Origin: Flavobacteriales bacterium
GTDB taxonomy: Bacteria > Bacteroidota > Bacteroidia > Flavobacteriales_F > PHOS-HE28
Direction of reading: 5' to 3'
Length of the DNA stretch: 64,000 bases
Assembly (NCBI GenBank): GCA_041391785.1
Contig: JAWKNI010000005.1
Span: 107,945-171,944 of the forward strand
Shown here: positions 32,940 to 57,290 of the stretch, piece after piece
Position numbering within the stretch: the first letter of the stretch is position 1
Layout: each line of letters starts with the position of its first letter
Translations under genes and position numbers: made by a program
The notes under the pieces: model-generated
What the model saw: the letters and a program-made list of their open reading frames with translations, nothing else
Told to the model about the DNA's origin: nothing
Database searches by the model: none

Positions 32940-35900
32940 TTAGAAGTTCTGGAGGTCCAGTGGTCGCAATGCGCCGAACCATTTGAGCACCTTCTCCCCT
33001 ACGCCGGGAACGTCGATGTGACAGATGTACACACCACCCGCGATCGGGATGTTGCTGGCGTTCTTCAGGTCCCAATCCAGGTAGGTCAGGTCATTGTCCT
33101 TGCGGAACTTGCGCACCAGCGTACCACTGACGTTGTAGATGCTGATCGTGCAGACCTGTGGCAGGTTGATGAACTTTACCCGGTTGTCCAAACGGGTCTG
33201 CTCATAGCCGCTGAATCCGTAGTAAGGGTTGGGCACCACATTGATGATGTCCAGGGATGCATCGGCCACGGCATTGTCGTTCGTTCCCACCTCGTAGCCC
33301 GCTGTACCGAAGGTGTACAGCGGCAGTCCGTTGTTGCGGGTGGGACCGATGGGCTGCGGGGTACCGGCGTAGTCCCCGTAGCTCTTGTACGGCTGTTTGG
33401 TGTTCAGTACGATAGTAACATCGGTCGCCAGCAGCTCCGTGCCCGGCAGCCTGATGGCACTGCCCACCCAGGAGACCGCGCGGAACAGACGGCGCAGGGG
33501 CTCCGGCTGGGTGGTCTGGATCAGCCCGTGGATGAACCGGCACTCGTCGTAGGCCGGCACACGGTTGTCCGCATTCGCCAGGCGACGGTCGTTCTTGAAC
33601 ACATAGATCCAATGGCAGCCACCGAATACGGGATCGCCATTGCTGGTGTAGAGCACATCGCTCGGGTTCCAGATCATGTCCCGGCCGATCTCACCACCCC
33701 AGAAGCTGTTCTCACCGTAGGCCATGTTCAGGCGCTCTCCGGTCTCGAGGTCGATGGCATAACCGGGGAACCAACCAGCTCCTGTGGGTTGCGCACCGCC
33801 AAGAGTGGCCTCATCCTCGTTCACACCGGGCGAGCCGGACTTGCGACCGTTCTTGTCGATGCTGGGCGAGGCACGCAGCGAAAGCTTCGCAGCACCGCCT
33901 TCGGAGAGGCTCACATCGGCCTCCTGCTCAAGCACCACGGCGCGCGTCCATTTGCTCTTGTCCGCGGTGATCACCAACTGGATGCTCGGGGTCTCCGCGA
34001 TCGGTGATACGCTGGACTGCGAGAGCGAGACCTGCTGGGTGTTGCTCGGTTGGAACGGTGCCTGCCCGACCAATGCCCATGGCGCCCATGTACCACCGAG
34101 GATGGCCTCGTACAACTGATCGTTGTCCTTGCCCACACGGTCGTTGTAGATCACATCCGCATCCAGTGCTTCGAAGATGCCGGAACGGATCCAGTTCTGT
34201 GGATTCACACCTTCAGCGTCGGAGATGCCACCGAACCAGGCCAGGGATTGATCCTTGTGAACAAGCGTACCGGAGCCGATGGGTTCCGTGAAGATGTCAC
34301 CGGTACCACCCGAACCCGTGGCCGTGTACTGCACCTGCCCGATGCGGACACTGAGGCCCCACTTCAGCAGCAACTGCTCATAGCGCAGGTCGATCGCACG
34401 ATCGCTGAACACGGTGTCGTTGGTACTCAGGTTCACGATGTACCAGTAGGCGTCATTCAAGTCACCCGGTGTGATGCTGTCCTGGAACCACACCTCGAAC
34501 TGTGCATCGGGGACGGCCAACGGATCGACCACGCGCACTTCGATGGGTCCGGAACCGACCTTGTACTTCAGCTGGTCCTGGCGCCATGGCGAACCGGAAA
34601 GGATCGCGTCCACGGTGCTTTGCTCCATCTCCAACCGCAGGCCACCATTGCCCTGGCCTTCAAGGCGTGTGATCTGCATGGCATCACCGAAGTCGGCATT
34701 CTGTGCGGTGCCTCCCTGCTCGGGGGATGGCTTGTGCGGAATGCCAACGTAGGAGCGGATCGAACCGAACGCTGCCTTACGACCCGCCACGTACGGGAAG
34801 GCCTGGCCCGTACCGTCCGCAGGGTTGAATGGTGCGTAATTGTTGTATCCGTAGCTGATCGCCAGGTAGTAGTACGACTTGAAGTTCACCAATGCCGGAT
34901 TGCCTTGAGCGAACCTGTCCTCCGTGATGCGGATCGCGTGCACCACCCCGGCATCAGCACCATTCACCTGCTCACTCGGAACGGTGAGTCCCAACTGATC
35001 ATTGAAGTCGTAGTTGATCAACTGACCGACGCCGTCCTCAAGGTCACCTTGATAGACCAGTCGGGCACTTTCGATATCGTCCAGGTCGGCCACACTCACG
35101 GTCGCATCGCGCAACTGATACACCTTGTACCCCTGGAAGCGGTACTCGCGGTCGTACATCTCACCATTCGGGCCTTGCTCCGGGATGATGGGGTCCACTT
35201 CCACATACTCTTCGTTCTCGTTGTTGCTACCCTGCGGGTTGACCAGGTAAATGATCAGCTCCTTGTCCAACTCCTGGATCACGAGGTCCGGTGCATCGGG
35301 ACCATCAAGGATCTTGAAGCAGTTGTCGAACAACGCCTGGGCCTTGTCATCCGCAACGCGCAGCGGGCCTACGCTGGCTGCCGCACCACCGGAGGAGGCG
35401 CGTGCGAACACGACACCCACGGTAACGTTGTTGTATGCACCGGGCTCCAAGGTGAAGGGACCGGCACTTTGCACGAAACGACGGTCCGGCAATGCAGGGG
35501 TCGGCGTGGTCTCGCGCCAATCCGCCTGGGTCACACAGTTCGTACCCCAGCCCACCACATCGGAGTCCCATGGGAACATGTAATAGGCCCGCACTGCATT
35601 CGGATCCTCCGAATAGCCATTGCCACCATAGGTCTGTGGGCGGTTGTTCTTCCAGACGCTTTGCAGGTAATTGTAGAAGTGCGAGGCATTGTCCGGGTCG
35701 GTCAGGTTGGCGTTCCCCTCGCGGTTGAAGTAGATGAAGGCACGCATGCCGAAGCGCTCGTTGTCGGGAACCGAGTCTCCATAGCCGATGCCCAGGCCTT
35801 TGTACGGGATACCATCCTGGTCACGAGCGATGATGCAATCCAACACCTCAGCGTTCGTGAGTGGACCAGGGTTGTCCACGCCGTCCGCATCCTGGTAAGG

Positions 35901-37052
35901 ACCTTCGAAGAAGTCCACCCCGATGGCCGGGGGTTGCGCGCCATAACCGATGCTCTGCCCTTGCTGGCACGTGGCGTCAACGTCCTGCCAGTTGTACGCG
36001 AAGCCGAGACCGCGTTGGATGTCGCAACCCACGAAGTCATCATCCGGGCAACCCAGATCGGCATCAACGAAGTGGCCGAAATAGGTGTTCGTCAGGGTCT
36101 GTGAACCCTGGTTGATGACCGTGTAGTTGTAGAAGGTCATGTTGTTGATCTCGTCGTTCGCATTGAACGAGAAGGCCTGAGCACGCACTTCCAGACCGAT
36201 CGGCTGCCCCAAGGTCTCCGTGTGGGCATCGCCTTTGTCATTGAAGATCCAGTAGATGTTGTTGTCACCGAAGAGGGATACAGGGTCCTCACGACGCTTG
36301 TTCTTGCAGTCCTCCACCGAGGTCTCGAACCCGTAGTCGGGATAATCACCGGAGAACGGGTCGTAGAATTCATCGCCATCCACGTCGATGAACGGGGCGA
36401 GGTGCAGGTCCTGTCCGGCATCCACGTTGCCGTTCGCCGGCCACTCCACGAAGGCTGGGGGCACGCTGTACCCGTCCGGGAAGATCTCATCGAGGTCGCA
36501 ATCCGGATCCTGCTGGCAGTTGTACCACTGGATGTGTGCTTCCGCCTGCGCCCGGCTGGTGGTGTAGAACTTGTCGTACTCTGCGCACACATCGGAAGTG
36601 ACGGACGCAAGACCATCATTGGTCAGGGGCCCGGGCCAGAAGTCGTTACCGTCCGCCCGATAGAGCACCGCCGCGATCTTCAACTGACCCGCACTGGAGA
36701 GGCCACCCATCCACAGCGAACCGGCATAGATGGCGTTCGGACCGCTGAAATCATCGGTCTTCGGCACTTCATAACCGGAGCGCGCGGTACCACCACGACG
36801 GGTCCATACGTTGCCACCGTTCTCGATCACCGCACGCACGTTGTTGAAGTTCAACTGCGTCACCTGCGATGCCGGTGAACAAGCGGCCGCCTTGGCAGCA
36901 CCCACCGCGCCGGAGTTGCCGGCCATGCCTGCCTGGCGTGGCGGTTCCTTGGCGTGGACGATGGCGCCCAGGGTCAACGCGAGGCACAGAGCGAAGGTTC
37001 TGGTAGGAATTGCGCTGTGTAAGCCTTTCATGATCTGCAGTCGTTTGTTCAT
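32940..37052 (-). CDS. Very large (1370 aa) secreted T9SS cargo protein with C-terminal sorting domain (type-B-like)
   Basis: Signal peptide; last ~100 aa VVPNPYYGFSGYE...FINLPQVCTISIYNVSGTLVRKF...LDWDLKNASNIPIAGGVYICHIDVPGVGEKVLKWFGALRP resembles T9SS CTD (xPNxxxG.., NLP..IY..G, W....P..GxY pattern of gliding-motility-type CTD). ATG overlaps upstream TBDR stop (ATGA). Confidence 0.7.
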   Translation of the reverse strand: MNKRLQIMKGLHSAIPTRTFALCLALTLGAIVHAKEPPRQAGMAGNSGAVGAAKAAACSPASQVTQLNFNNVRAVIENGGNVWTRRGGTARSGYEVPKTDDFSGPNAIYAGSLWMGGLSSAGQLKIAAVLYRADGNDFWPGPLTNDGLASVTSDVCAEYDKFYTTSRAQAEAHIQWYNCQQDPDCDLDEIFPDGYSVPPAFVEWPANGNVDAGQDLHLAPFIDVDGDEFYDPFSGDYPDYGFETSVEDCKNKRREDPVSLFGDNNIYWIFNDKGDAHTETLGQPIGLEVRAQAFSFNANDEINNMTFYNYTVINQGSQTLTNTYFGHFVDADLGCPDDDFVGCDIQRGLGFAYNWQDVDATCQQGQSIGYGAQPPAIGVDFFEGPYQDADGVDNPGPLTNAEVLDCIIARDQDGIPYKGLGIGYGDSVPDNERFGMRAFIYFNREGNANLTDPDNASHFYNYLQSVWKNNRPQTYGGNGYSEDPNAVRAYYMFPWDSDVVGWGTNCVTQADWRETTPTPALPDRRFVQSAGPFTLEPGAYNNVTVGVVFARASSGGAAASVGPLRVADDKAQALFDNCFKILDGPDAPDLVIQELDKELIIYLVNPQGSNNENEEYVEVDPIIPEQGPNGEMYDREYRFQGYKVYQLRDATVSVADLDDIESARLVYQGDLEDGVGQLINYDFNDQLGLTVPSEQVNGADAGVVHAIRITEDRFAQGNPALVNFKSYYYLAISYGYNNYAPFNPADGTGQAFPYVAGRKAAFGSIRSYVGIPHKPSPEQGGTAQNADFGDAMQITRLEGQGNGGLRLEMEQSTVDAILSGSPWRQDQLKYKVGSGPIEVRVVDPLAVPDAQFEVWFQDSITPGDLNDAYWYIVNLSTNDTVFSDRAIDLRYEQLLLKWGLSVRIGQVQYTATGSGGTGDIFTEPIGSGTLVHKDQSLAWFGGISDAEGVNPQNWIRSGIFEALDADVIYNDRVGKDNDQLYEAILGGTWAPWALVGQAPFQPSNTQQVSLSQSSVSPIAETPSIQLVITADKSKWTRAVVLEQEADVSLSEGGAAKLSLRASPSIDKNGRKSGSPGVNEDEATLGGAQPTGAGWFPGYAIDLETGERLNMAYGENSFWGGEIGRDMIWNPSDVLYTSNGDPVFGGCHWIYVFKNDRRLANADNRVPAYDECRFIHGLIQTTQPEPLRRLFRAVSWVGSAIRLPGTELLATDVTIVLNTKQPYKSYGDYAGTPQPIGPTRNNGLPLYTFGTAGYEVGTNDNAVADASLDIINVVPNPYYGFSGYEQTRLDNRVKFINLPQVCTISIYNVSGTLVRKFRKDNDLTYLDWDLKNASNIPIAGGVYICHIDVPGVGEKVLKWFGALRPLDLQNF

Positions 37053-40000
37053 CAGAAATCGAAACGGACACCAAGACGGATGGTGCGGGGTGCACCGTAG
37101 TTATCGGGAGTATTGATCTTCAGCGCGTACAGGTCGCGGAACGAATCGGGATCGATCTGGGAACGATCCGTGAGCTGGGCGAGGTAGCCATCGTTGTCCG
37201 GCGAACCCGTGTAGCGATACACCCCGGTGATGTTCTGTGTGTTGAAGACGTTCGTCACCAGGAGGTAGATGTTCAGGTTGGCGCTCTTGGCCTTGTCCCC
37301 TTCCTCACCACCGAAGCTCAGGGTGATGTCGCGGTCCAGCTGAAGGTCGGTGGTGAACTGCCAGGGTAGACGCGCACCGTTCAGCGTACCATCCAGGCGG
37401 TAGTTCGTGTTCTCCACGGCCTCGTTCACCACCTGGCTGCTGCGGCTGTACGGTGTTCCGCTTCCGAGGATGCCCACCACGTTCAGACCGGTGCGCTGGA
37501 AGATGGGCTTGCCGAAGAGCATCGGACCGTTGTAATCCTTGCCGGCACCATAGCGGAAGTCCATCGTCGCGGCGAAGCGGTGGCGCTGGTCGAAGTCGAG
37601 CGGCACGATGGTCCGCAGGTTGGCCTGGCCGGAGTTCACCAGGCTCACGCCGGTGTTCGGACCTGAACCGGTACCGTCGGCGAACTGCAGGGTGTAGCTC
37701 GCGCGCATCCACACGTTGCCGGTGCGACGGAGGTCGAAGGATGCGGTGAAGCCCTTCACCGTACCGAAGTCGATGTTCTCATAGGTGCGGTAGGAACGCG
37801 GCCATGCGTTGTTGCGGTTCACGATCTGGATCTGGTCGCGCAGTTCGCGGTAGAACGCGGAAAGCTTCAATGAAGAGGATTTGCTCAACACCTGCTGGAA
37901 GCCCAGTTCGTAGTCGATCGTCTTGGTGGGGCTCAGGTCCGGGTTGTTCAGGATGTTGCCCGTGGTGAAGTTGTAGGCATACTCCAACAGGTCACCCCGC
38001 GATTGCAGCGCGTTCGGACGCTGGGTGAGGACATCGTAGTGGGCGAAGAACACGGCCTCATCCGAGATCGGGAAGGAGAATGCGACGCGGGGCATCACGT
38101 TCACCACCGGGGTGTAATCCCGGAAGGCCTTGCGGCTCAATTCGGAACCCGGCAGGTCATCCGCATCGCCACCCTCGATCAGGTACGGGCGGATCTGGCC
38201 GGCCTCCTGCACGGAGTTGCCTCCATCATTCAACTCCACACCGGTGGGGCTGTACCAGATGTCGCCATCGCGGTAGCCCTTGATCGTGTTCGGTGAGCCG
38301 AAGTTGTCCACATACACTACGAAGTCATCGCCGATGTTGCCCGGGCGGTTCGCCAATTGTGCGGCGATGTCAGCATCGGGCACAGCCGATCCGGCGGTGT
38401 ACGCCTCCTGCCACAGGTACGGATCCGTGAGCACGTTCTGGTTCGCATCGTAGCGGTCCACACGTACCCCGACGTTGAAGATGATGTCGTCGAAGGCGAA
38501 CTTGTCCATCACATATCCAGCGATGTAGATCGGCTCGAACGGCGCCTGCAGACGGGTGAAGTTCCCCTTCTCGTCCTTGGCGGTGAAGAAGCTGTCGAAG
38601 CTGGGTTTGCTGGTAAGCTTGTTGCCCAGGTGGTCATAACCCACGTAGCTCACGAGGTTGTTCCCGTTGTTGATCAACTCATCCGGTGCGAACATGTCCA
38701 GGGAGAAAACACCCGGATCGAGGGCATCGATGTCGATGAAGTCCGCTCCGTTCGGATCCAGGCCGAGCGCTTCACGCAGGCTGCGATCGAACGTGGACTG
38801 GCGGGAGAGGTCGTTGTTCCGGGAGTAGAAGTAGAACGGCAGGGAGTTGGGGATCTGCACGATGTTCGTCACAGCGGTATCCTGCCACTCCAGGATGTGG
38901 GCATTGCCCAGTGCGCGCGCCCGCGTCCACAGGCCGATCGGGGCCAGGTCGTAGCGGCGCTGGGTGAGCTGTTCATATTCCACCCCGACCGAAACGGCGT
39001 GCTGGTTGATGTCCGCACTACCAAACGCCGTGAACCGGATCTGATCGTTCTGGCGCTTGCGGTACTCCGCCCCGTTGGGGTCATCGATGAAGCCGATGTT
39101 GTTCCAGATGTCGTAAAGACCCCGTGGACGCAGACCGTTCCAGATCACCCCACGGGACTGGGTCTCGGCGAAGTTCTGGTAAAAGCCGACGTAGTTCGGA
39201 TCGGAACCTTGCGGCGCACCGAAGAGTTCCTGGATGGGGAAGTTCTCCTGCGGGAAGGCGTTGAAGTAGAAGTTGTTGATCGAGGCGAGGTCGGGGTTCT
39301 GGGTACCCGGTGTGAAGGTGACGAGGGTGTCGCGCTCCCCGATCTGCACCCACCGCGAATCACGCAGTTCGAACCGCGGTGCACGGTAGGTGTTGAACCG
39401 ACCGACATAACCGTAGTCGAAGAAGTTGTCGCCGTGCACGAAATCCTCCACATTGCTTTGGTAGCGTGAGTAATCCAACTGCAGCGAGTAGAAGGCGTTC
39501 TGGATCGTGGAGCGCTTCTCCTCCTCCTCGGTACGGTTGAGGAAGCGTTGGGTGAACTTCACGAAGCCCCTCCAGGTGGTCTCCTTCACCCGGTAGTTGT
39601 TCTCCGCGTTCAACAGCGCGTTCTTCCGGTTGTAGTCCTGGCGGTTACCGTAATCGAATGACCCACCCACGGAGAGGTTGATGGTGGGCGTGGTGGTGAT
39701 GTCCAACTTGCCGGATGCCAGGTAGCTGGTCTTACCTGCGTTCTGGCGGGTCTTCAAGGTCTCCGTGTCGCCGGTGCGCAGGAATTCGCTGCTGTACCCA
39801 AGGGTGAAATCATTTGCACCGCTGGGGAGCAGGCGGGCGGGGTCGGAAAGAATGGCATCCCGCACCTCGGGTCGCACGCGGATGTCCCCGATGTAGGACG
39901 GGGCATCATCGACGACATCGGTGAACTGACCGGAAACGAAGAACCCGATCAGGGGCTTGTCCTTGTTGCCAAGGCTGTCCTTCTTGAAGAGGATAGGACC

Positions 40001-40813
40001 CGAGAGGCTGGCTTCCACCTGATTGAAGGCGAACTTGTCCAGACCGACGATGTCCGTGATGTCCTTGCCGACCTTGTAGCCGGAGGTAAGGTATTCGACG
40101 CCTCCGAAGAAATTGCGGCTGGGACCACGCGTGGTGATGTTCACCAGACCACCGGTCACGTCACCGTAGTTCGCAGGCACACCACCGGTGATCACCTGCA
40201 CCTCCTCGATCGCGCTCTTGGGCAGGCCCGTGCCCGCACCGGCCGGCACTTTCACACCATCGATATAGTAATAGGTGTTCTCCGTACGTGCACCGCGAAT
40301 GCTGATGCCACCATCGGTACCGGCCGTGCTGGCGCCGGCAACGGTCGTCGCAATGCTGGCCGCCGAACGACCGGGCATCTTGGCGATGTCCTCCCGGGTC
40401 ACGGTACCACCGGATGCACCACCATCGCGCTGGATCAGCGGAACATTGTACTGCACCACTTCGAACTCCTTCAGTTCGATACCGGAATTGAGGCCGATGT
40501 TGAGGAAGGTGATGGTGTTGCTGTTGACGACCACCCCTTGTTGCTTGGACGGCTGGTACCCGGTGTATGCGACGATCACGTCATAGGTACCCGGTTCGAT
40601 CGGTTTGATGAAGTATTCCCCGTCGAAGTCCGTGGACCCGCCGGTCACCTGAACGCCATTGCGTTCGATCACGACACTTACGAACGGAAGAGGTTCACTG
40701 GTCTTCTTATCGGTGACCTTGCCCTTGAGGCTGCCGGAACCCGTTTGGGCACTTGCGGCGAGCACACAGCAGATGGAAAGGGCGATTGTAGAGAATAGTC
40801 TTCTCAACATCAA
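37052..40813 (-). CDS. Oversized TonB-dependent receptor (1253 aa) with N-terminal CarboxypepD_reg domain
   Basis: Signal peptide, GSLKGKVTDKKTSEPLPFVSVVIERNG (CarboxypepD_reg), plug domain (TVTREDIAKMPGRS...ISIRGARTENTYYYIDGV), C-terminal ...RTIRLGVRFDF. Confidence 0.85.
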   Translation of the reverse strand: MMLRRLFSTIALSICCVLAASAQTGSGSLKGKVTDKKTSEPLPFVSVVIERNGVQVTGGSTDFDGEYFIKPIEPGTYDVIVAYTGYQPSKQQGVVVNSNTITFLNIGLNSGIELKEFEVVQYNVPLIQRDGGASGGTVTREDIAKMPGRSAASIATTVAGASTAGTDGGISIRGARTENTYYYIDGVKVPAGAGTGLPKSAIEEVQVITGGVPANYGDVTGGLVNITTRGPSRNFFGGVEYLTSGYKVGKDITDIVGLDKFAFNQVEASLSGPILFKKDSLGNKDKPLIGFFVSGQFTDVVDDAPSYIGDIRVRPEVRDAILSDPARLLPSGANDFTLGYSSEFLRTGDTETLKTRQNAGKTSYLASGKLDITTTPTINLSVGGSFDYGNRQDYNRKNALLNAENNYRVKETTWRGFVKFTQRFLNRTEEEEKRSTIQNAFYSLQLDYSRYQSNVEDFVHGDNFFDYGYVGRFNTYRAPRFELRDSRWVQIGERDTLVTFTPGTQNPDLASINNFYFNAFPQENFPIQELFGAPQGSDPNYVGFYQNFAETQSRGVIWNGLRPRGLYDIWNNIGFIDDPNGAEYRKRQNDQIRFTAFGSADINQHAVSVGVEYEQLTQRRYDLAPIGLWTRARALGNAHILEWQDTAVTNIVQIPNSLPFYFYSRNNDLSRQSTFDRSLREALGLDPNGADFIDIDALDPGVFSLDMFAPDELINNGNNLVSYVGYDHLGNKLTSKPSFDSFFTAKDEKGNFTRLQAPFEPIYIAGYVMDKFAFDDIIFNVGVRVDRYDANQNVLTDPYLWQEAYTAGSAVPDADIAAQLANRPGNIGDDFVVYVDNFGSPNTIKGYRDGDIWYSPTGVELNDGGNSVQEAGQIRPYLIEGGDADDLPGSELSRKAFRDYTPVVNVMPRVAFSFPISDEAVFFAHYDVLTQRPNALQSRGDLLEYAYNFTTGNILNNPDLSPTKTIDYELGFQQVLSKSSSLKLSAFYRELRDQIQIVNRNNAWPRSYRTYENIDFGTVKGFTASFDLRRTGNVWMRASYTLQFADGTGSGPNTGVSLVNSGQANLRTIVPLDFDQRHRFAATMDFRYGAGKDYNGPMLFGKPIFQRTGLNVVGILGSGTPYSRSSQVVNEAVENTNYRLDGTLNGARLPWQFTTDLQLDRDITLSFGGEEGDKAKSANLNIYLLVTNVFNTQNITGVYRYTGSPDNDGYLAQLTDRSQIDPDSFRDLYALKINTPDNYGAPRTIRLGVRFDF

Positions 40814-41060
40814 CGGTAGGTTTTACGTTCTTCGGAACTGCGCAACGAGGGGGCGCTAATATAGCAAGTTCCCGTAACCGCAAGAATTTCATTCTGCCTT
40901 GTCAGTCGCGGGCTGCGTGAGGTGCCAATGCTCTTCGCACGGATGGATATGGAGCAGGACATGGGCATCGCCGGTGTCGTTGCGCTAAAGATATCGTCAA
41001 TGCAATGTGAAGAAGGACATTCCGATCCGCGAAGCTTCGCCGATCCTATACATGTCCACC

Positions 41061-41357
41061 TCAGCGCTTGCGGCTGAACAACCGGCTGAAGAAGCCGTCC
41101 GTGTGCCTTCCGGACCCCTTGCGCTCGGCGCGCTTGGTGTTGCGCTTGATGCGCTTGCGGGTGTCCTTGCTCTGGATGTCCAGGTGGCGCTTGCGTCCTT
41201 CCTTGTCCCGCTTCTTGTCCGCCTTCTTTTCTTCCTTGGCCTTCTTCTCCAGCAATTTCTCCTGCTTCTTCCGGCTGATCCCGTCCTGGGCATGGTTCGC
41301 CGCAGGAATGGCAGTGATCAACAGGAGTACCAGTATGGATCGAAGAAATGCGCGCAT
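41061..41357 (-). CDS. Small secreted Lys/Arg-rich protein (98 aa), hypothetical
   Basis: Convincing signal peptide MRAFLRSILVLLLITAIPAANHAQ followed by KKQEKLLEKKAKEEKKADKKRDKEGRKR...; could also be a high-GC frame artefact. Confidence 0.35.
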   Translation of the reverse strand: MRAFLRSILVLLLITAIPAANHAQDGISRKKQEKLLEKKAKEEKKADKKRDKEGRKRHLDIQSKDTRKRIKRNTKRAERKGSGRHTDGFFSRLFSRKR

Positions 41358-41426
41358 GTTCGGTACAAGGATAACGCACCGATCCTTCGCAACGTACTTC
41401 CCTACATTTGTGTGCGTTACCCGAAC

Positions 41427-41855
41427 ATGTTCGTGAAGTCCGGATACCTCTTCCTGCTGACAATTGCGGTGGTACTGACGGCCTCCTGCCGGAAGACCGA
41501 ACGCGCTGGTGTGCCCCTGACACCGGTGGACATCAGCATCAATGTGAACAATCCATCCTATGCGGACATCGCCGTACCCGGCGGGTGGCTCTACCTCACC
41601 GGTGGATCACAGGGGATCATCGTGTACCGCACTTCGCCGGACGCCTTCGTTGCCATGGACCGTCACTGTCCCTACCAACCGGCTGAACTGTGTCGCGTGG
41701 TCGTGGATGAGAGCGAGATCATAGCCCGGGACACCGCCTGCTGCCATTCCGCATTCCTGATCGTCGATGGCAGCGTCTCTGAAGGTCCGTCGGCGCTTCC
41801 GTTGCAGCGCTACAACACCTCCTTCAACGGGACCACGCTGCGGATCTACAACTAG
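41427..41855 (+). CDS. Hypothetical lipoprotein (142 aa) with Cys/His-containing C-terminal half
   Basis: MFVKSGYLFLLTIAVVLTASC lipobox; ...DRHCPYQ...TACCHSAF...; the upstream 140 codons of the track ORF are considered noncoding. Confidence 0.5.
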   Translation: MFVKSGYLFLLTIAVVLTASCRKTERAGVPLTPVDISINVNNPSYADIAVPGGWLYLTGGSQGIIVYRTSPDAFVAMDRHCPYQPAELCRVVVDESEIIARDTACCHSAFLIVDGSVSEGPSALPLQRYNTSFNGTTLRIYN

Positions 41856-41912: not shown

Positions 41913-41923
41913 GCCATTGCGGA

Positions 41924-47035: not shown

Positions 47036-47928
47036 CCCATCAAGTGCATGAACAGGTCCTCGATGCCAGGCTCAATGGCCTGCAATCGTACTTCTCCGAT
47101 ACCGGTGCGGTCCAGCTCCGCGCGCACCCGGTCCAGATCCAAAGGAGCCTTCGCAGTGACGTGCACGGAACCACCGAACGGGTGCACATGCAGCACCTCC
47201 GGGATGGTGCGCAATGAACGCAGAAGCCGGTAGGGATCATTCGCGATCGCCTCATACAGCGGGCGGTCGAATCCGGCCGTGATCGCATCCGGCGTGCCGG
47301 TACGAAGCAAGTTCCCGTTCTGGATCAGCCCGATCCGGTCGCATTGGCCCGCCTCATCCATGTACGGCGTGCTGACCAGGATGGTGATGCCTTCGTTCCG
47401 CAGCTTGTGCAGCATGGTCCAGAACTCCCGGCGACTCACCGCATCCACCCCTGTGGTCGGTTCATCGAGCACGAGCACCAGCGGACGATGGATCAGAGCG
47501 CAGCTCAGGGCGAGCTTTTGTTTCATGCCCCCGCTCAACGCACCGGCTCGTCGGTCCGCAAAGGGTTCCAACATCACATAGATGTCCTTGATCAGGTCGT
47601 AATTCTCCTCGACCGTCGTGCGGAAGACACTGGCGAAGAACTCCAGGTTCTCGCGCACCGTAAGATCCTGGTACAAGGAGAAGGTGCCCGGCATGTAGCC
47701 CACGTGTTCGCGCACGTGGAAGTAATCCTTCACCACATCGCGGCCATTGAAGGTGATCGTGCCTGCATCGGGTAACAGGAGTGTGACGAGCGCACGGAAC
47801 AATGTGGTCTTACCCGCACCATCCGGACCGATGAGCCCGAACAGTTCACCCTTGGGCACCGAAAAGGACACGTCGCTCAGTGCAGCGGTGGCGCCGTAGC
47901 GCTTCGATACCTTGTCGATGACGATCAT
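47032..47928 (-). CDS. ABC transporter ATP-binding protein (second)
   Basis: GPDGAGKTT, LSGGMKQKLAL, LVLVLDEPTTGVD. Confidence 0.9.
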   Translation of the reverse strand: MIVIDKVSKRYGATAALSDVSFSVPKGELFGLIGPDGAGKTTLFRALVTLLLPDAGTITFNGRDVVKDYFHVREHVGYMPGTFSLYQDLTVRENLEFFASVFRTTVEENYDLIKDIYVMLEPFADRRAGALSGGMKQKLALSCALIHRPLVLVLDEPTTGVDAVSRREFWTMLHKLRNEGITILVSTPYMDEAGQCDRIGLIQNGNLLRTGTPDAITAGFDRPLYEAIANDPYRLLRSLRTIPEVLHVHPFGGSVHVTAKAPLDLDRVRAELDRTGIGEVRLQAIEPGIEDLFMHLMG

Positions 47929-48818
47929 CGTTCCGCTGGATCGAGGAATACCTCACCGGGCATACCGCTCTTCAACAGGCCTTGCGCGTTGGGCACGCGT
48001 ACCTTGAAGGCATAGACCATATCCACGCGTTCCTCGCGGGTCTGGATCGTCCTTGGTGTGAACTCGGCCTCCGTGCTGATCCAACTCACCCGCCCCGGGA
48101 TGCGGACCAGGCCGCTGTCGCCGCGATCGATGCCTACGTCGACCTGCGCGCCCATTCGCAATGATGCGAGTCGGGCGCCCGTGATGTACGCCCGCAATTC
48201 GAGCGTGTCCATCCGTGCGATCCTGTACAACGGCCTCCCGAGTGTCGCCAACTCATGCGGTTCCGCCAGCTTGCTCACGACCGTGCCACGAACCGGATTG
48301 ACAATGCGCAGATCCTCCAGTTGCTGGCGCAGGTATGCCATGCGCGCATCGAACGCCCGGATCTGTGACACGATGCCGGGATCCTGGGCCTCAAGTGCAG
48401 CCACTTGTTTCTTCTGGATGACGATCGATCCTCGCAGGTCATCCAACTGCTTGGGGGTCGCGGCCTTGCCCTCCACAAGCTTGACCATGCGCGCCTCCTC
48501 GCGCTGCAGATCGGCAAGACGCGCGTCCTGCACGGCGATCCGTGCCACCAGATCACGGGCCTTGCTCGCCATGGCCTCCCGGTTGGCGGCCACCTCCGCG
48601 GCCAATGACCCCAGCAAGGTGGTATCAATGGCACCGACCACATCACCGACCTCCAGCAGCATGCCCTCCTCGACATCGAAGGACCTCAATTCGCCCGAAC
48701 CTTTCGCGCTGATGAGCGTCTCGGCCGCTTCGAAGTTGCCGTATGCATCGGCATCCGCGCCCGTATCGCCGCAGGCCGTGAAAAGCATCGCGAGCGACAT
48801 GAATGTGAAGGTCCTCAT
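47925..48818 (-). CDS. HlyD-family periplasmic adaptor (lipoprotein)
   Basis: MSLAMLFTAC lipobox, coiled-coil region, beta-barrel C-terminus; sits between TolC and ABC genes. Confidence 0.8.
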   Translation of the reverse strand: MRTFTFMSLAMLFTACGDTGADADAYGNFEAAETLISAKGSGELRSFDVEEGMLLEVGDVVGAIDTTLLGSLAAEVAANREAMASKARDLVARIAVQDARLADLQREEARMVKLVEGKAATPKQLDDLRGSIVIQKKQVAALEAQDPGIVSQIRAFDARMAYLRQQLEDLRIVNPVRGTVVSKLAEPHELATLGRPLYRIARMDTLELRAYITGARLASLRMGAQVDVGIDRGDSGLVRIPGRVSWISTEAEFTPRTIQTREERVDMVYAFKVRVPNAQGLLKSGMPGEVFLDPAER

Positions 48819-50071
48819 CTGGCTTGTATGTCTTTTGATGTGCGGATCGCGAGCACCGCCTGTAGCTCGTGGATCTCCCTGCCCAGGCGTGCCGCATGTT
48901 CCTTGTTCAACTCATTCACGTAGTCGGCCGCAGTGGCCGTACCATTGGCGAGCTGTTCGGCCTTGGCCTCGGTCACCTCGGTCCGCAGCGCGATCAGGCG
49001 ATCATCCGAACTCCGCAAGGCGCGGAAGTGCGCCAACTCCTCCCGTTGATGCGCGAGCGCAATGGTCCATCGCTCAACGATCCTTTCACGATCCATGCGC
49101 AGCAGATCGCGTTGCAGATCGATGTTACGATCCGTGCGCTTGCGTGTTCCCCAATCCACGATACGCCATTGGATCCCCGCACCGACCAGCAGCATCGGTC
49201 GCCACTCGTCCAGGAAGGTGTTGTAACCAGGGTTGCCGGCACCAGCGTTCCCGAAGACCCTGATCCTTGGGAGCCGGGATGATCGCGCCAGATCGTGCTG
49301 GACATCCAAGGCTTGCAGGCGCAGGTCGAACGCGCGGATGTCGGGGCGTTGCTCGACCGAAAGGTCACCAGGCTCCGTTTCCACCGGTGCAACGAAGGAC
49401 GCGGTCGCGACCGCGGCAGCATCGGTGATCGTGGCGAGTTCATGCCTTGTCCGTTTCACGGTGGTGCTTACTTGCGCGATCTCCTGGTCCAGGGTGATCG
49501 TTTCGGCCTCCAATGCAGCCGCATCCGATAGCAGCGCAGCACCGGCATCGACAGCGGCAATGAGCCGTTCATGCTGCGCCAGGATGGACGCCTTACGCAA
49601 GGCAAGCAATCCCAGCTGTCGTTCGCCCAGCAGCACGGCCATATACCGCTGCGTCACTTGTCCGCGGACCTCCAACTCCCTGGACGCGAGTGCAAGGTCC
49701 TGCTGATCGACGTCCAATTGTTCCAGCCGCAGGCGCGATCGGGTCACCTGGCCATCGTATACGGTCTGACCGATCTCGATCAACGCACGGTGGAGATCGA
49801 GCGGCACCTCGGGCGGTGCGAGACCGGGGAGTCCGAACGGCAGGTCGATCTGTTCGTTCTGGTAGGTGCTCTGTACATTCAAGTTGAACTGGGGGAACCA
49901 CGCACTGTTCACCTCATCAGCTTGCAGCGCCTTCATGTCCGCAAGCAACGCTCGGGAGTCTCGGAATCCTTCGTGGCGCAGGGCAAGGGTGATCGCCGAG
50001 TCCAGGGAAAGCCCCTGCCCCGAACAGATGCACCCCGCGAGAAAGGTGATCGTACACAGAACGGACCTCAT
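48815..50071 (-). CDS. TolC-family outer-membrane efflux protein
   Basis: 418 aa, signal peptide, two OEP repeats with coiled-coil character. Confidence 0.8.
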   Translation of the reverse strand: MRSVLCTITFLAGCICSGQGLSLDSAITLALRHEGFRDSRALLADMKALQADEVNSAWFPQFNLNVQSTYQNEQIDLPFGLPGLAPPEVPLDLHRALIEIGQTVYDGQVTRSRLRLEQLDVDQQDLALASRELEVRGQVTQRYMAVLLGERQLGLLALRKASILAQHERLIAAVDAGAALLSDAAALEAETITLDQEIAQVSTTVKRTRHELATITDAAAVATASFVAPVETEPGDLSVEQRPDIRAFDLRLQALDVQHDLARSSRLPRIRVFGNAGAGNPGYNTFLDEWRPMLLVGAGIQWRIVDWGTRKRTDRNIDLQRDLLRMDRERIVERWTIALAHQREELAHFRALRSSDDRLIALRTEVTEAKAEQLANGTATAADYVNELNKEHAARLGREIHELQAVLAIRTSKDIQAR

Positions 50072-50676
50072 GGCTTCAAACTGTTCGTAAGCACGGATAC
50101 GATGTGGGTGCGGCGTTGCTCAAGGAATGCCTGCCGGTCCTTCTTCCCCATCCCGAGTGCGATGCCCACGGCAGGCAGCATGGAGAAGGTGAAGGCGCAG
50201 AGCGAGACCATGTCAAGCAGGAACTGGATACCGCTCTTGCGTTCCGGCGGCAGCTTCCGTTGCATCAGGTCAGGTTCGATGTGCGCAGCGACCTTGAGCA
50301 GTATGTCCCGCAACGGTGAATTGGCGATCATGTTCGGATCGCGCTGTACTTCGAACAGCACGAAGGCCGGTAATCCCGGGGTCTCCTCCAGCAGGTCGAA
50401 GTACCGCGCCACCATCGACCTCACCTTCTTCTCGAGCTTCCCCTTGCTCTCCAGAATGTGGAGCAGGTCAGTGTACAAGCGCCCTGCCTGGTACTGGAAC
50501 ACCTCCCTGAAGATCGCATCCTTGGTCTTGAAGTAGTAGTGCAGCAATCCCTTGTTCACCCCCGCGCGTTCCGCCAATTCACGCATGTTCACGCCGTCCT
50601 GACCGTGCTTCACGAACAGCTCTCGTGCCGCCAGAACGATGCGATCCCGTGTCCCACTATCCTGGATCTTACCCAT
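50068..50676 (-). CDS. TetR/AcrR-family transcriptional regulator
   Basis: RDRIVLAARELFVKHGQDGVNMRELAERAGVNKGLLHYYFKTKDAIF HTH; start ATG 50676. Confidence 0.8.
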   Translation of the reverse strand: MGKIQDSGTRDRIVLAARELFVKHGQDGVNMRELAERAGVNKGLLHYYFKTKDAIFREVFQYQAGRLYTDLLHILESKGKLEKKVRSMVARYFDLLEETPGLPAFVLFEVQRDPNMIANSPLRDILLKVAAHIEPDLMQRKLPPERKSGIQFLLDMVSLCAFTFSMLPAVGIALGMGKKDRQAFLEQRRTHIVSVLTNSLKP

Positions 50677-50808
50677 TTGGGTAACAAAGGAACACAGATC
50701 TACCCATACGTCCAAATACCTCGCGGACGATCCATTGGATCGATCGTATGGACCAGTGGAACACCTCGCCTACCTTCACCGCCCATCAACGAACACCGCC
50801 CGGTCCGC

Positions 50809-52770
50809 ATGCGCAAGGTCCTGTACCGCCTGCTACGCCTGCTCGCCTGCATCGCCCCGCTCTCATGCACGGCCCAGGCGGATTCGCTGTTCCGGGTGTG
50901 GAACGATCCGGGATCACCGGACAGTTCCCGCATCAGGGCCATTCAACTGCTTGCCTGGAAGGCCGTTTTCGAAGTTCCGGACAGCGGCATCAGCCTGGCG
51001 CAGAAGCAGCTCGAGCTGGCTGAACGGACCAAGGACCGCCTGGCGATCTATGAGTCCCACACCACCATGGCGGTCGGGAGTAGCTTGAAAAGCGACTTCC
51101 CAACGGCTCTTGGCCATTTCGACGTGTGCCTGCGCACGGCCCGTTCCATGGGCGATCTGAAGCGCGAAGCGAACACCTACAGCAACATGAGCAACGTATT
51201 CAGGCACATGGGCGATCTGCCGATGGCCTTGGAACAGTTGCAACGCAGCCTCCGCATCGATCAGGATCTGGGGAACAAGGAGGGATTGGCCGGCACGTTC
51301 AACAACATCGGTAACATCCATACGGAGCTTGGTGATCTGCCCGCAGCGCTTGAACACTATACCAAAAGCGCGATGCTGTATGATGCGTTGGACCAGACCA
51401 AGGGCAGGGCACAGGCGTTGTTGAACCTCGGTGTGACACACCTGGAAATGGGTGAACGGGAGAAGGCCCTTGCCGAGTTCCTCCAGAGCCTCGGCCTGTA
51501 CCGGACGATGGGCCGGAAGATGGAAGTGGGCATGGCATTGAACAATCTTGGGCGGACCTATTCACGACTTGGCCGGATCGCCGAGGCCAGGCACTCCCTG
51601 GACTCGGCGCTCGTCCTGTTCACGGAACTGGACAGCAAGCGCCAGATGGCGCGCAGCCTGTATTACCTGGGTGACCTCGACCTGCAGGAAGGGCACTCCC
51701 GAGAGGCCATCGTGCACTGCAAACGTGGGCTCGGCATCGCACGATCGGCAGGCCTGGCCCTTCAGCGCAAGGAATGCAGCGAATGCCTGATGGTGGCCTA
51801 CGAGCAGGTGAATGACCTGGGGAACGCCTTTCGTGCGCAAAAGGAATTCATGCAGGTGGGCGACTCCCTGGATGCGTTGAACAACAGCGAGGAAGTGATG
51901 CGGTTGGAGATGCAGCACAGTTTCAGAGAAGAACGCATCGCGGACAGCCTGAAGAGTGAACGCAGGCGATTCGCCGATCAGCTGGCCTATGACCAACAGC
52001 TCGGCAAGGAGCGTGAACAGCGCAACATCTTCCTGTACTCCGGCCTCGGGGTACTGCTCCTCGCTGGGAGCCTTTGGGGGAGGCTGAGGCACACCCATCG
52101 GTCACGGATCGCCATCCAACAGGAGAAGGACCGGAGTGATGCGCTGCTGCATAACATCCTGCCGGAGGAGGTGGCCCTGGAGCTGCGCCAGAAAGGTCAT
52201 GCGGAGGCGAAGCACTTCGAGGAGGTCACGATCCTGTTCTCCGATTTCAACGGATTCACACAGGTGAGCGAGCGGCTATCACCTGCCGAGCTCGTAGAGG
52301 AACTGAACGTGTATTTCAAGGCGTTCGATGCGATCATTGAAGCCCAGGGCATTGAGAAGATCAAGACGATCGGTGATGCGTACATGGCCGCCGGCGGTGT
52401 ACCCGCGGGAGGGGACGATGCCACCGGCCGTACCGTATGCGCCGCGTTGGACATGCAAGCTTTCGTGGTGGCGCGTTGGAACGAGCGCGACGCACAAGGG
52501 TTGCCGGCGTTCAGGATGAGGATCGGCATCCATACCGGACCCGTAGTGGCAGGCATCGTTGGCACCAAGAAGTTCCAGTATGACATCTGGGGGGATACCG
52601 TGAACATCGCCAGCCGCATGGAAAGCAGCGGTGAGATCGGCACCGTGAACGTCAGCGAGGAGACCTACGTGCGTCTTCGGAACGACAGCCGGTTCGCGTT
52701 CGTTCCACGCGGTCAGGTAAGCGCCAAAGGGAAAGGCGATCTTCCGATGTACTTCGTGCGCTGGGCGTGA
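50809..52770 (+). CDS. Class III adenylate/guanylate cyclase with N-terminal TPR sensor array and one TM helix
   Basis: Signal peptide, ~8 TPR-like repeats, TM, then ...FSDFNGFT...IKTIGDAYMAAGG...IGIHTGPVVAGIVG...YDIWGDTVNIASRMES. Confidence 0.85.
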   Translation: MRKVLYRLLRLLACIAPLSCTAQADSLFRVWNDPGSPDSSRIRAIQLLAWKAVFEVPDSGISLAQKQLELAERTKDRLAIYESHTTMAVGSSLKSDFPTALGHFDVCLRTARSMGDLKREANTYSNMSNVFRHMGDLPMALEQLQRSLRIDQDLGNKEGLAGTFNNIGNIHTELGDLPAALEHYTKSAMLYDALDQTKGRAQALLNLGVTHLEMGEREKALAEFLQSLGLYRTMGRKMEVGMALNNLGRTYSRLGRIAEARHSLDSALVLFTELDSKRQMARSLYYLGDLDLQEGHSREAIVHCKRGLGIARSAGLALQRKECSECLMVAYEQVNDLGNAFRAQKEFMQVGDSLDALNNSEEVMRLEMQHSFREERIADSLKSERRRFADQLAYDQQLGKEREQRNIFLYSGLGVLLLAGSLWGRLRHTHRSRIAIQQEKDRSDALLHNILPEEVALELRQKGHAEAKHFEEVTILFSDFNGFTQVSERLSPAELVEELNVYFKAFDAIIEAQGIEKIKTIGDAYMAAGGVPAGGDDATGRTVCAALDMQAFVVARWNERDAQGLPAFRMRIGIHTGPVVAGIVGTKKFQYDIWGDTVNIASRMESSGEIGTVNVSEETYVRLRNDSRFAFVPRGQVSAKGKGDLPMYFVRWA

Positions 52771-52780
52771 TCGGCCGGTC

Positions 52781-54832: not shown

Positions 54833-54908
54833 GGGGAGGGGATTCAGGATACCAAAACTACCCTCCAACCCTTTCATGCCGCAATAGAACCTTCGTTACA
54901 ACCCCAGG

Positions 54909-57290
54909 TCAGAAGCGCAGCGCTAGCGCCCCCAACACGTTCAACGGTGCTTGTGGATACAACCCCACCAGTTCCTGCCTGCTACCGCCAAGCAGGTAGC
55001 TGTAGCTCCAAGCATTGCTCTCGTACAGTTCATTCAGCACGTTGCGCACCGTAAGGTTGAACGCGACGTGCGGTATCCGGAAGAAAGCGGACAGATCCAC
55101 ATTCAATCGCAGGTCGTTGACCAGGTACGGATCCAGAGCCCGGTCGGCACTGCCACTGTTGTCGATGTACTGGCGACCCACATACTTCGTGATGAGCGTA
55201 AGGTCGGCGTTCCCTTTCCCTCTCCGCTGCCAGAAACGATAGCTCAACTCGCTTGCGGCGATCTGCTCCGGACTGAATGCGATCGGGGTGGAGGTGTAGG
55301 TGAACGCCTGCTGCCCACCGGTATCCCAGTCATCGACGAATTCCGTGAAGTCCTTGATGCGATCCCTGCTGAACGTGGCATTGCCTTTCCAGCGCAAACG
55401 CCGGGTGACCTGCGCCGCCCACGTGATCTCCACACCGGAACGATAGCTCTTCGCAACATTGGTACGGAGTGCAGCGCCCACATCATTGAGCTCTCCGGTC
55501 AGCACCAATTGGTCCGTGTAGTCCATGTAGTAGCCGTTCACGCCGAAAGCGAACCGCGCACCACGTCGTTCGTATCCCAGTTCATGATCCGTAAGCCGCT
55601 CGCTCGTGGGGCGGCTCATGGGCGTGGTCTCCTCGAAGTCGTCCCGGTTCGGTTCACGGTTCGCCACGGCAACGCTTCCGTACACGCGTCCACCTTCGTG
55701 CACGCGCCAACTCAGCCCTCCCTTCGGGTTGAAAAAGCTGAACGCGTTGTATTGGTCACGGACGTTCAACGCATCATCGAACCCGAGCAGCTCATGCTCC
55801 ACTGCACGCACCTGCACGTCGCCGTACGCTGTGAGGCGATCGCTCAACGTGTAATTCAATTTGGCGAACACGTTCGCATCCATCTTGTTCGCATCATTGT
55901 CGTAGTACCGTTGATCATTGCCATATGGCCCGGAGAAGCGCGCCCAGATCACCTCACCGAAATGTGCACCGGAATAATTGGAGTAGCTCCCGCCCAGGAT
56001 GAATTCGTGCTTTCCGAATACATGCATCAACGAGGCATTCACCCCGAGCAGGGTGTTGTCCAGCCACCGTCGGGTGATGAAGTCGTTCATGACGGCGGTA
56101 TCCGTACCCAGGACCACTGGACCAGGGAAGTAATCCAAGGTCTCTTCATCGCTCCTGAAATTCTCATAGTATCCTTTGCCATCCACCCGATAACCTGTCA
56201 GGCTCAATGTGGTGGAAGCACTCAGCTTCTCCTCGAAGAGCAATTGATAGTGGGTCTGATCGTAGTTGTCCACCTCATTGGCATAGGTGTATCCGTTATA
56301 GGTGCGCGCCGTATCGATCACCTCCCTGGGCACACCGCCCCATGCCTGGTAGGTCACCTCGCTTCCGCGGAAGGTGATGAACCGTAACGAACGCCTTCTT
56401 CCGATCCATGCCCCCTGCAGGAAATAGCTCTTCAGGTCCGCGGTCGCCCGGTCTATGTAGCCATCGCTCGTGATGGAGGAAAGGCGCATGTCGAGGCTGA
56501 AGCGATCCTCGATCACACCGGTACCTGCACTCACGCTGTAGCGTTGCGTGTTGTACGAACCCCCACTGATCCCGATGTTGGCCCATGGCTCGGGTCTCAC
56601 ACTGGTGGTGCGCAGGTTCACCGTTGCGCCGAATGCCGCAGGCCCGTTCGTGCTGGTGCCCACACCGCGTTGCACCTCGATATCCTCCGCGCTCGATGCA
56701 AGGTCCGGCAGGTTCACCAGGAATGCGCCCTGGCTTTCCGGATCGTTGAAGGGTACACCATTCAGCGTGATGTTGGTACGCGTGGCATCCGTCCCACGAA
56801 TGCGCATGCCGGTGTACCCGATACCGGTGCCCGCGTCGCTCGTGGTGACCACGCTTGGCTGCAGGTCGAGCAGATAGGGCAGATCGACGCCGGTGTTCAT
56901 CCGTGCGATGTCATCCTTGGTGACCATCGACCGCGCGAACGGTGCGGTCCCTACGCGCAACGCATGGACCTCGGCGGCACGCATCATAACCACATCCGTG
57001 CGCATGTGGAACACAAGATCCATGGCCCCGGCAAGCGCAATGGTCGTGTCGATCCCGACATGGCCCAGGCTGCTGAGGCGCATCCGGTACTCGCCCTCTT
57101 CGATGCCGCTCAGGATGAACCGGCCTTCAGCATCGGTGACCGCGCCGAACGCATGATCATCACCGAGAATGACATTGACAGCAAGCATGGGGGTGCTGTG
57201 CTCGTCCAGTACTTGTCCGGTCAGGCGCACCTGTCCGAATGCCGCAGCAAGTTGGAAAAACGCGACGAACGCGATCGATGTTCTCTGCAT
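54909..57290 (-). CDS. TonB-dependent receptor (CarboxypepD_reg + plug + barrel), thiamine/TPP-regulated outer-membrane transporter
   Basis: MQRTSIAFVAFFQLAAAFG signal, RLTGQVLDEHSTPMLAVNVIL, plug ...MVTKDDIARMNTGVDLPYLL, C-term ...LGALALRF; preceded by TPP riboswitch. Confidence 0.85.
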   Translation of the reverse strand: MQRTSIAFVAFFQLAAAFGQVRLTGQVLDEHSTPMLAVNVILGDDHAFGAVTDAEGRFILSGIEEGEYRMRLSSLGHVGIDTTIALAGAMDLVFHMRTDVVMMRAAEVHALRVGTAPFARSMVTKDDIARMNTGVDLPYLLDLQPSVVTTSDAGTGIGYTGMRIRGTDATRTNITLNGVPFNDPESQGAFLVNLPDLASSAEDIEVQRGVGTSTNGPAAFGATVNLRTTSVRPEPWANIGISGGSYNTQRYSVSAGTGVIEDRFSLDMRLSSITSDGYIDRATADLKSYFLQGAWIGRRRSLRFITFRGSEVTYQAWGGVPREVIDTARTYNGYTYANEVDNYDQTHYQLLFEEKLSASTTLSLTGYRVDGKGYYENFRSDEETLDYFPGPVVLGTDTAVMNDFITRRWLDNTLLGVNASLMHVFGKHEFILGGSYSNYSGAHFGEVIWARFSGPYGNDQRYYDNDANKMDANVFAKLNYTLSDRLTAYGDVQVRAVEHELLGFDDALNVRDQYNAFSFFNPKGGLSWRVHEGGRVYGSVAVANREPNRDDFEETTPMSRPTSERLTDHELGYERRGARFAFGVNGYYMDYTDQLVLTGELNDVGAALRTNVAKSYRSGVEITWAAQVTRRLRWKGNATFSRDRIKDFTEFVDDWDTGGQQAFTYTSTPIAFSPEQIAASELSYRFWQRRGKGNADLTLITKYVGRQYIDNSGSADRALDPYLVNDLRLNVDLSAFFRIPHVAFNLTVRNVLNELYESNAWSYSYLLGGSRQELVGLYPQAPLNVLGALALRF

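Follow-up and report, generated by a model that had tools for sequence, protein, structure and literature searches.

A 64,000-nt stretch of contig JAWKNI010000005.1 from a Flavobacteriales bacterium (assembly GCA_041391785.1; 60% G+C), hereafter the window, has close protein matches exclusively in uncultured Flavobacteriales metagenome-assembled genomes (MAGs). Pfam and NCBIfam scans of its large open reading frames (ORFs) identify exactly two TonB-dependent receptors (TBDRs), TBDR1 and TBDR2, both on the minus strand; a scan of the other large ORFs, including all those above 600 aa, did not find a third, and neither receptor matched the SusC/RagA model in an NCBIfam scan at E<=1. The initial annotation of the window had described each receptor as carrying a CarboxypepD_reg N-terminus and as being followed, on the same strand, by a gene for a signal-peptide protein ending in a type IX secretion system (T9SS) C-terminal sorting domain (CTD), with no SusD-like gene downstream. 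This description is accurate: Pfam domains and start-site reading bear out the N-termini; the CTD of the second cargo protein, C698, exceeds the cut-offs and that of the first, C1370, is sub-threshold in the protein itself and was called from its family; and no SusD gene adjoins either receptor, the next genes being C1370 and then a PorV/PorQ-family barrel in pair 1, and C698 and then a convergent cyclase in pair 2. A further count, of six T9SS-CTD genes in the window, was reproduced as four above and two below threshold. What had been drawn from the repetition, namely that receptor and cargo are functionally paired, fared less evenly, and is taken up below once both loci have been described.

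Anatomy and conservation of the TBDR1 trio

Pair 1 is a trio, the third gene of which had been overlooked. TBDR1 (37052..40810, minus strand) encodes 1252 aa in which a signal peptide precedes the CarboxypepD_reg domain, the plug and a large barrel, whose long loops amount to ~400 aa; its start is the ATG at 40810, which opens a clear signal peptide, the ORF listing having run to a TTG at 40813. The TBDR1 stop overlaps the first ATG of the following gene as TGATG. That gene, C1370 (32940..37052, minus strand), encodes a ~150-kDa protein of 1370 aa with a signal peptide, a beta-rich body and, as judged from its family, a divergent, extended PorZ-type T9SS type A CTD; a second in-frame ATG 21 nt further on (37031) is an alternative start and the consensus start of the family. 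P351 (31857..32912, minus strand), encoding a 351-aa outer-membrane beta-barrel of the PorV/PorQ family (NF033709), begins 27 nt past the C1370 stop with no hairpin between the two.

The last ~70 nt 5' of the TBDR1 ATG are near-invariant in an alignment of nine relatives, the rest of the ~250-nt spacer being variable. This conserved upstream region or 5' leader (40811..40885, minus strand) reads CTATATTAGCGCCCCCTCGTTGCGCAGTT...GAACGTAAAACCT...ATG and probably contains a Bacteroidota-type -7 promoter element; a riboswitch was sought there and no Rfam family matches the leader. At the other end, directly 3' of the P351 stop and before greA, stands a terminator-like 10-bp hairpin (31812..31837, minus strand; GGAGAGGACC-tttcgg-GGTCCTCTCT). 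An equivalent hairpin follows the P351 orthologue in 57 of 61 loci, with a median stem of 12 bp and changes on both arms, and a stem of at least 8 bp occurs at the C1370/P351 junction in just three of the 61. Simple sigma-70 and terminator scans returned no more sites than in shuffles. It is because of the tight junctions, the conserved upstream region and the hairpin after P351, taken together, that TBDR1-C1370-P351 can be read from the sequence as a three-gene transcription unit ending before greA. Upstream of it, ~250 nt from TBDR1 and on the same strand (~41060..41355, minus strand), lies a gene for a 97-aa secreted, extremely Lys/Arg-rich protein that every close relative and about half of the distant relatives retain; a 237-aa ORF overlapping the TBDR1 start (40810..41523) was rejected as an artefact, the Lys-rich protein gene being the real upstream neighbour.

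C1370 belongs to a large family. More than 3475 homologues were recorded, the best 120 of which share 54-75% identity and all measure ~1360-1380 aa; a scan of one genome per species gave at least 598 matching stretches; and an exhaustive search of 1.84 billion representatives, with residues 61-1260 as the query, returned, in 50% identity clusters, 6824 with E<=1e-3 and 1735 with E<=1e-30. An exact look-up of the C1370 and C698 proteins in an assembly index gave no match. Amongst 82 C1370 loci examined, neighbours were counted where there was enough flank (67 loci upstream, 77 downstream): 58 of the 67 have a TBDR1 orthologue (45-79% identity) as the immediate upstream neighbour, and 67 of the 77 have one of P351 (46-81% identity) as the immediate downstream neighbour, with spacers mostly of -1 to +43 nt at the first junction and 0 to +51 nt at the second. 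The same gene order is found at 36% and 40% identity in loci L166 and L169, where the downstream gene matches PorV_fam at 133 bits. In a divergent trio (L168, 6431..14138) the PorV/PorQ-family barrel carries an OmpA-like peptidoglycan-binding domain as a C-terminal fusion (594 aa), and the upstream gene, 511 aa long and matching the TBDR barrel only weakly, may have been truncated or miscalled. The trio is kept together in most of several hundred Flavobacteriales species. Some lineages, Parvicellaceae MAGs included, have a further full-length copy of C1370 immediately behind the PorV-like gene (L061, 13114..17319; L074, 13289..17386; L077, 12288..16445; L072, 11297..13678); in a neighbour-joining tree each copy pairs with its own locus partner, which indicates recent duplications.

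The products of the three genes

TBDR1 exceeds its Pfam cut-offs throughout, with 53.8 bits for CarboxypepD_reg, 38.4 against 23.9 for the plug (PF07715) and 41.4 against 27 for the barrel (PF00593). In an AlphaFold2 (AF2) model of residues 113-1252 (predicted TM-score 0.73), five long and partly helical insertions, each of 55-112 residues, interrupt a large barrel. The Foldseek matches of this model are PirA, PfeA, FepA, OprC, BtuB and XusA (E 6e-18 to 1e-14, target TM 0.5-0.59), among them BtuB and XusA of Bacteroides thetaiotaomicron, both of which have had their structures solved with surface lipoprotein partners; a PDB sequence search with TBDR1 found nothing significant. The barrel call rests on PF00593 and the fold matches, by which TBDR1 has a genuine TonB-dependent-transporter (TBDT) fold. 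Conservation within the protein is highest in the plug, at a column conservation of 0.92 against 0.79 for the strands and 0.57-0.81 for the long loops, which argues, at the level of sequence, for a transporter that works and is gated. A conserved LKEFEVVQY..VPLI lies in the segment that links the N-terminal domain to the plug, and is read from the sequence as a candidate TonB box region.

The CTD of C1370 is recognised through its family. Homologues are named 'T9SS type A sorting domain' proteins by NCBI, the motifs VVPNP, IYNVSGTLV, GGVY and KVLKW can be picked out by eye, and distant family members have CTDs that match the one of PorZ (E 3e-11 and 2e-4). Conservation peaks in the final 100 residues (0.79, against 0.53-0.71 elsewhere), which close with a near-invariant KWFG..RP.DLQNF tail; such conservation of a CTD, above that of the rest of its protein, would fit a retained docking module better than a disposable, cleaved signal. 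C1370 is not PorZ itself, lacking the full-length match to NF052228, two beta-propeller domains included. A search of the family profile against PDB sequences found nothing significant, its sole hint being the PorZ structure 5m11 at a non-significant E of 0.9, and neither C1370 nor P351 has a Pfam domain at E<=0.01. The AF2 model of residues 61-1260 is mostly beta, with a mean predicted local distance difference test (pLDDT) score of 84.6, and Foldseek against the PDB gave weak, partial matches at best. A beta-supersandwich domain in this model hints, and nothing more, at a glycan-type ligand.

P351 matches NF033709 (PorV_fam) over residues 35-350 of 351 at 143.5 bits, against a cut-off of 90 (E 1e-41), and falls below the equivalog cut-offs for PorQ (64.4 vs 220), PorV (58.8 vs 250) and PorV2 (33.4 vs 325); the orthologues in L166 and L169 follow the same pattern, matching the family model and none of the equivalogs. 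By these scores P351 is neither a canonical PorV nor a canonical PorQ, and a PDB sequence search with it found nothing significant. We propose that it is the dedicated carrier or anchor of C1370. PorV-family barrels are T9SS carrier proteins (for the carrier-protein model of T9SS export, see PMC10994853); PorU stays on PorV, and PorZ on PorQ, via uncleaved CTDs, with the suggestion, made in a review, that cognate PorV-like barrels protect these CTDs from cleavage (PMC10202324). As PorV-family barrels bind T9SS CTDs, the position of a CTD gene directly before a private PorV/PorQ-family gene provides a functional link that is independent of any gene-order statistics.

TBDR2, its probable riboswitch and its neighbour C698

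TBDR2 (54909..57290, minus strand; 793 aa) starts with a signal peptide at the ATG at 57290, within an ORF spanning 54909..57341, and has the same three Pfam domains as TBDR1: CarboxypepD_reg, Plug and the TonB_dep_Rec barrel. Its leader, between the AAA_28 gene and TBDR2, contains a probable thiamine pyrophosphate (TPP) riboswitch aptamer (57345..57411, minus strand) that had previously been overlooked. This is a short variant without the P3a stem, and because that stem is missing it scores 39.6 bits against RF00059, under the gathering score of 54.3 (local-scan E 2e-6), so that a default Rfam scan misses it; the core motifs CUGAGA, ACCC, UGAACCUG, GGUAAU and GAAGGGA are all present. In L147 and L131 the TBDR2 homologues are preceded, at the equivalent position, by full TPP riboswitches (76 and 68 bits), and the core motif was found by a strict regular expression in at least 37 of 70 loci, a lower bound. 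The short form appears common to many close relatives.

Directly upstream of the riboswitch lies an AAA_28 kinase gene (57482..58057, minus strand; PF13521, E 1e-29; C-terminal part of TIGR01526, E 4e-24), the product of which resembles the C-terminal ribosylnicotinamide-kinase domain of NadR, and further on a gene for a PnuC-family (NMN_transporter) inner-membrane vitamin transporter (59993..60586, minus strand; PF04973, E 2e-32). In a neighbourhood sample of 80 metagenome loci, these two are the recurrent neighbours of TBDR2 homologues, also at 38-48% identity, in the order PnuC-AAA_28-TBDR or TBDR-PnuC; the AAA_28 gene stands immediately upstream in 32 of 64 loci with enough flank, distant ones included. 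TBDR2 is therefore best read as the outer-membrane part of a thiamine-regulated vitamin uptake set with the PnuC-like and AAA_28 proteins, and on sequence grounds is the probable outer-membrane importer of thiamine or a thiamine precursor; a thiamine-riboswitch-regulated vitamin receptor would be the better annotation. In Bacteroidetes, outer-membrane thiamine transporter loci that include PnuT and are controlled by a TPP riboswitch are reportedly known from work on thiamine in B. thetaiotaomicron. TBDR2 resembles these reported loci in following a probable TPP riboswitch and in its linkage to PnuC-family and small kinase genes, and differs in that its riboswitch is short and sub-gathering and its kinase is of the AAA_28 (NadR-like) kind. 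Two other genes stand amongst this set: one for a Rax2-like beta-propeller protein with a CTD (58144..59967, plus strand), a fourth besides three successive CTD genes at 17212..21587, whose orthologues are conserved beside the AAA_28 gene; and one for a 200-aa leucine-rich-repeat (LRR) protein (60583..61185, minus strand) between ribF (61182..62159) and the PnuC-like gene, with 4-nt overlaps on both sides, in a ribF-LRR-PnuC-like arrangement conserved in L083, L084, L087, L090, L110 and L119.

The cargo gene of pair 2, C698 (52781..54877, minus strand; likely true start 54832), encodes 698 aa with a signal peptide (MIARTSLSVLLLTVGTALSAQA), a variable N-terminal part and a ~440-aa C-terminal module, the CTD scoring 36.7 bits against a cut-off of 27 for PF18962 and 44.7 against 23 for TIGR04183. 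Many homologues share only the C-terminal 65%. Convergent with C698 is a gene for a TPR-adenylate/guanylate cyclase (50458..52770, plus strand), which follows the C698-like gene in most loci with enough flank, L085 included, and is a steadier neighbour of it than the TBDR. An efflux cluster (44089..50715, minus strand; TetR, OEP, HlyD, two ABC ATPases and two ABC-2 permeases) separates this thiamine block from the trio, and the same cluster lies beside the cyclase gene in L085. As the two blocks are only ~5 kb apart in L083 (GCA_016710965), with PcrB and AdoHcyase genes between them, the cluster's position suggests an insertion or rearrangement in the present genome.

One must consider whether pair 2 might nonetheless be functional within a sublineage, C698 being co-transcribed under the TPP riboswitch and serving as a surface accessory for thiamine capture, much as BtuG does for vitamin B12. 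No terminator-like structure was found between TBDR2 and C698 in this genome, spacers of 31-76 nt having been checked, so co-transcription here is possible; a C698-like gene lies immediately downstream of TBDR2 in ~15 of 28 loci at 55% identity or above; and Bacteroides has surface partners of vitamin TBDTs (PMC10404256). Against this, the gene follows none of the 27 more distant TBDR2 orthologues, and it is missing downstream of the closest ones (78% identity; L086 and L088); in L085 the closest orthologue of C698 (63% identity) lacks an adjoining TBDR and stays with the convergent cyclase gene; and the proteins that do follow TBDR2 range from 335 to 793 aa with differing N-termini, their shared module recurring in many paralogues in other contexts. 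We give a sublineage-specific function little credence, and C698 is judged not to be a conserved partner of TBDR2, but a neighbour by local synteny only.

The opposite extreme, that CTD genes are so dense here that both pairs arose by chance, is very improbable as an account of the two together. Among ORFs of at least 150 aa, such genes account for ~5% in related loci and 9-14% in the window, and at these rates two out of two receptors would be followed by one in ~0.2-2% of cases, a level that is not negligible, as the pattern was noticed post hoc. Pair 2 does indeed behave like chance or local synteny. What speaks against coincidence is pair 1, with tight junctions kept down to 36% identity, an attached PorV/PorQ-family gene, and an upstream region and terminator of its own. 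The repetition itself carries no weight as evidence of functional adjacency, since the two receptors belong to different families and their cargo proteins are unrelated, no cross-matches having been found between the products of the two pairs. Of the initial proposal that repetition shows functional adjacency, there survives the part that concerns pair 1, through operon conservation, the promoter region and terminator, and the attached PorV/PorQ-family gene; for pair 2 the adjacency is unconserved, and the argument from repetition falls. A general, recurrent rule by which TBDR genes precede T9SS cargo genes is accordingly only partly supported: pair 1 is a conserved receptor-cargo operon and pair 2 lineage-restricted local synteny, and in genomes rich in T9SS cargo such adjacency alone is no functional signal. 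Elsewhere in the window, three successive genes for T9SS type A CTD proteins of 351, 604 and 354 aa, the third at 21.8 bits vs 23, occupy 17212..21587 (plus strand), and two DUF2911 genes, one of them fused to TPR repeats, lie at 11000..12079 (plus strand) and 22216..23052 (minus strand).

A proposed receptor with a docked surface partner

We hold with moderate confidence that the trio encodes a TonB-dependent transporter with a surface partner that the T9SS exports and that remains anchored, via an uncleaved CTD, on a PorQ-like barrel of its own. C1370 would be exported by Sec and would then cross the outer membrane through the T9SS translocon, loaded on its own carrier, P351. Its CTD would escape cleavage and remain bound to P351, as that of PorZ does on PorQ and that of PorU on PorV, tethering C1370 to the surface, where it would act as the extracellular, substrate-capturing partner of the TonB-energised importer TBDR1, in the role that lipoproteins play in SusCD, RagAB, BtuBG and XusAB. 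A physical assembly of TBDR1, C1370 and P351 is what we infer from these features.

Several observations weigh against this reading. The greA gene and a HIT gene downstream stay beside the trio as often as TBDR1 and P351 do (21 of 28 in the most distant tier); gene order alone is therefore no proof of co-function, its conservation was rejected as decisive evidence, and it is the junctions, the upstream region and the terminator that carry the case. C1370 occurs without TBDR1, P351 or both in ~9-12 loci: L062 keeps P351 only, L075 keeps TBDR1 only, and the separated genes adjoin UvrD/AddA-type helicase or other unrelated genes. ORFs of ~1060 aa upstream of some of them were considered as divergent TBDRs and rejected, being these same helicases. 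Nor are the exceptions relocated second paralogues: as the tree shows the tandem copies to have arisen by recent, lineage-specific duplication and the solitary genes to be scattered, the trio has indeed come apart several times. The CTD of the C1370 protein in the window is itself sub-threshold (TIGR04183, 16.7 vs 23 bits) and has no Pfam match, and the structural hint of carbohydrate binding spans just ~250-300 of the 1200 modelled residues. The plug of TBDR1 (residues 113-229 of the protein; model spanning 37055..40474 of the window, minus strand) has an AF2 pLDDT of 25-45 despite its high conservation and a well-modelled barrel. Lastly, housekeeping-like conservation and single-copy synteny are unusual for nutrient TBDTs, and a structural or biogenesis role would also fit them.

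Two other explanations bear on the same evidence. C1370 and P351 could be a cognate cargo and carrier, the cargo being a surface adhesin, enzyme or coat protein, with TBDR1 merely co-transcribed or syntenic and transporting something unrelated. The C1370-P351 link has a biochemical logic of its own (a CTD and a PorV/PorQ-family barrel) and that to TBDR1 is purely one of gene organisation; unrelated genes can remain neighbours in this clade, as greA and HIT demonstrate; and L062 retains C1370 and P351 without the receptor. We nevertheless regard this as unlikely, if worth taking seriously, given that the stop/start overlap, together with spacers that in nearly every locus are no longer than 43 nt, suggests co-translation or co-transcription with TBDR1, that the conserved upstream region precedes TBDR1 rather than C1370, that the conserved terminator comes only after P351, that L075 retains TBDR1 and C1370 without P351, and that all three products are outer-membrane or surface proteins. 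Alternatively, C1370 and P351 might fill, in this clade, the place that the PorZ/PorQ arm has in the T9SS attachment complex, or form some other T9SS housekeeping module, and so serve secretion or surface biogenesis rather than uptake. The resemblance of the C1370 CTD to that of PorZ, the best equivalog-level match of P351 being to PorQ (64 bits), the very high conservation of apparently single-copy genes in housekeeping synteny, and a supersandwich domain that could bind a polysaccharide such as A-LPS would all agree with such a role, which we consider decidedly unlikely on balance. The trio is like PorZ-PorQ and PorU-PorV of Porphyromonas gingivalis in the proposal that a large protein exported by the T9SS retains its type A CTD and is held at the surface by a PorV/PorQ-family barrel; it is unlike them in that the C1370 body has no detectable similarity to PorZ (beta-propellers) or PorU (a C25 peptidase), P351 falls short of the PorQ and PorV equivalog cut-offs, and the genes are adjacent, in an operon with a TBDT.

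To return to a receptor with a T9SS-exported, docked partner, three further systems invite comparison. SusC-SusD, RagA-RagB, BtuB-BtuG and XusA-XusB likewise encode a TonB-dependent barrel directly upstream of a large extracellular partner; the CarboxypepD_reg domain of TBDR1 is typical of Bacteroidota TBDTs, and BtuB and XusA are its structural neighbours. C1370, however, is neither a lipoprotein nor SusD-like, would need the T9SS and a second barrel as its anchor, and would interact with TBDR1 by analogy with these systems. Type B CTD cargo encoded beside PorP/SprF-like carriers, for example SprB-SprF and PG1035-PorP (PMC9143113, PMC10994853), shares with the trio a cargo gene adjoining that of its own dedicated carrier or anchor barrel; the CTD of the trio is instead, going by its family, of the type A/PorZ kind, its barrel is PorV/PorQ and not PorP/SprF (TIGR03519 matches at only E 0.013, in L166), and those systems involve no TBDT. 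Oar of Myxococcus xanthus, a TBDT needed for secretion of the protease PopC (PMC6434023), is similarly long, has a CarboxypepD_reg domain at its N-terminus and has a functional tie to a secreted protein. Oar is itself implicated in export, whereas C1370 is read as having its own T9SS signal and carrier, and export via TBDR1 would be unneeded.

A survey of the literature on PorV2, PorQ-like proteins, PorV paralogues, and TBDTs with T9SS and surface-exposed partners found no description of such a trio, two papers on Bacteroidota BAM, also checked, proving unrelated; the trio is apparently undescribed. Retained-CTD proteins paired with PorV-like barrels are known mainly from the T9SS attachment complex (PorZ-PorQ and PorU-PorV), and the known surface partners of Bacteroidota TonB-dependent transporters are lipoproteins. 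Against that background we suggest tentatively, and would stop short of calling it probable, that the trio is a widespread and undescribed outer-membrane machine, a 'T9SS-assembled utilisome', in which a TBDT works with a 150-kDa non-lipoprotein T9SS partner permanently docked by an uncleaved PorZ-type CTD on a PorQ-like barrel. If true, this would link two signature outer-membrane systems of the Bacteroidota. The trio suggests a third way of building surface-exposed uptake complexes, and a reuse of the PorQ/PorZ docking principle outside the secretion machinery; and the C1370 family, prominent as it is in poorly studied environmental Flavobacteriales of wastewater, freshwater and marine habitats, would offer a concrete target for structural and genetic work.

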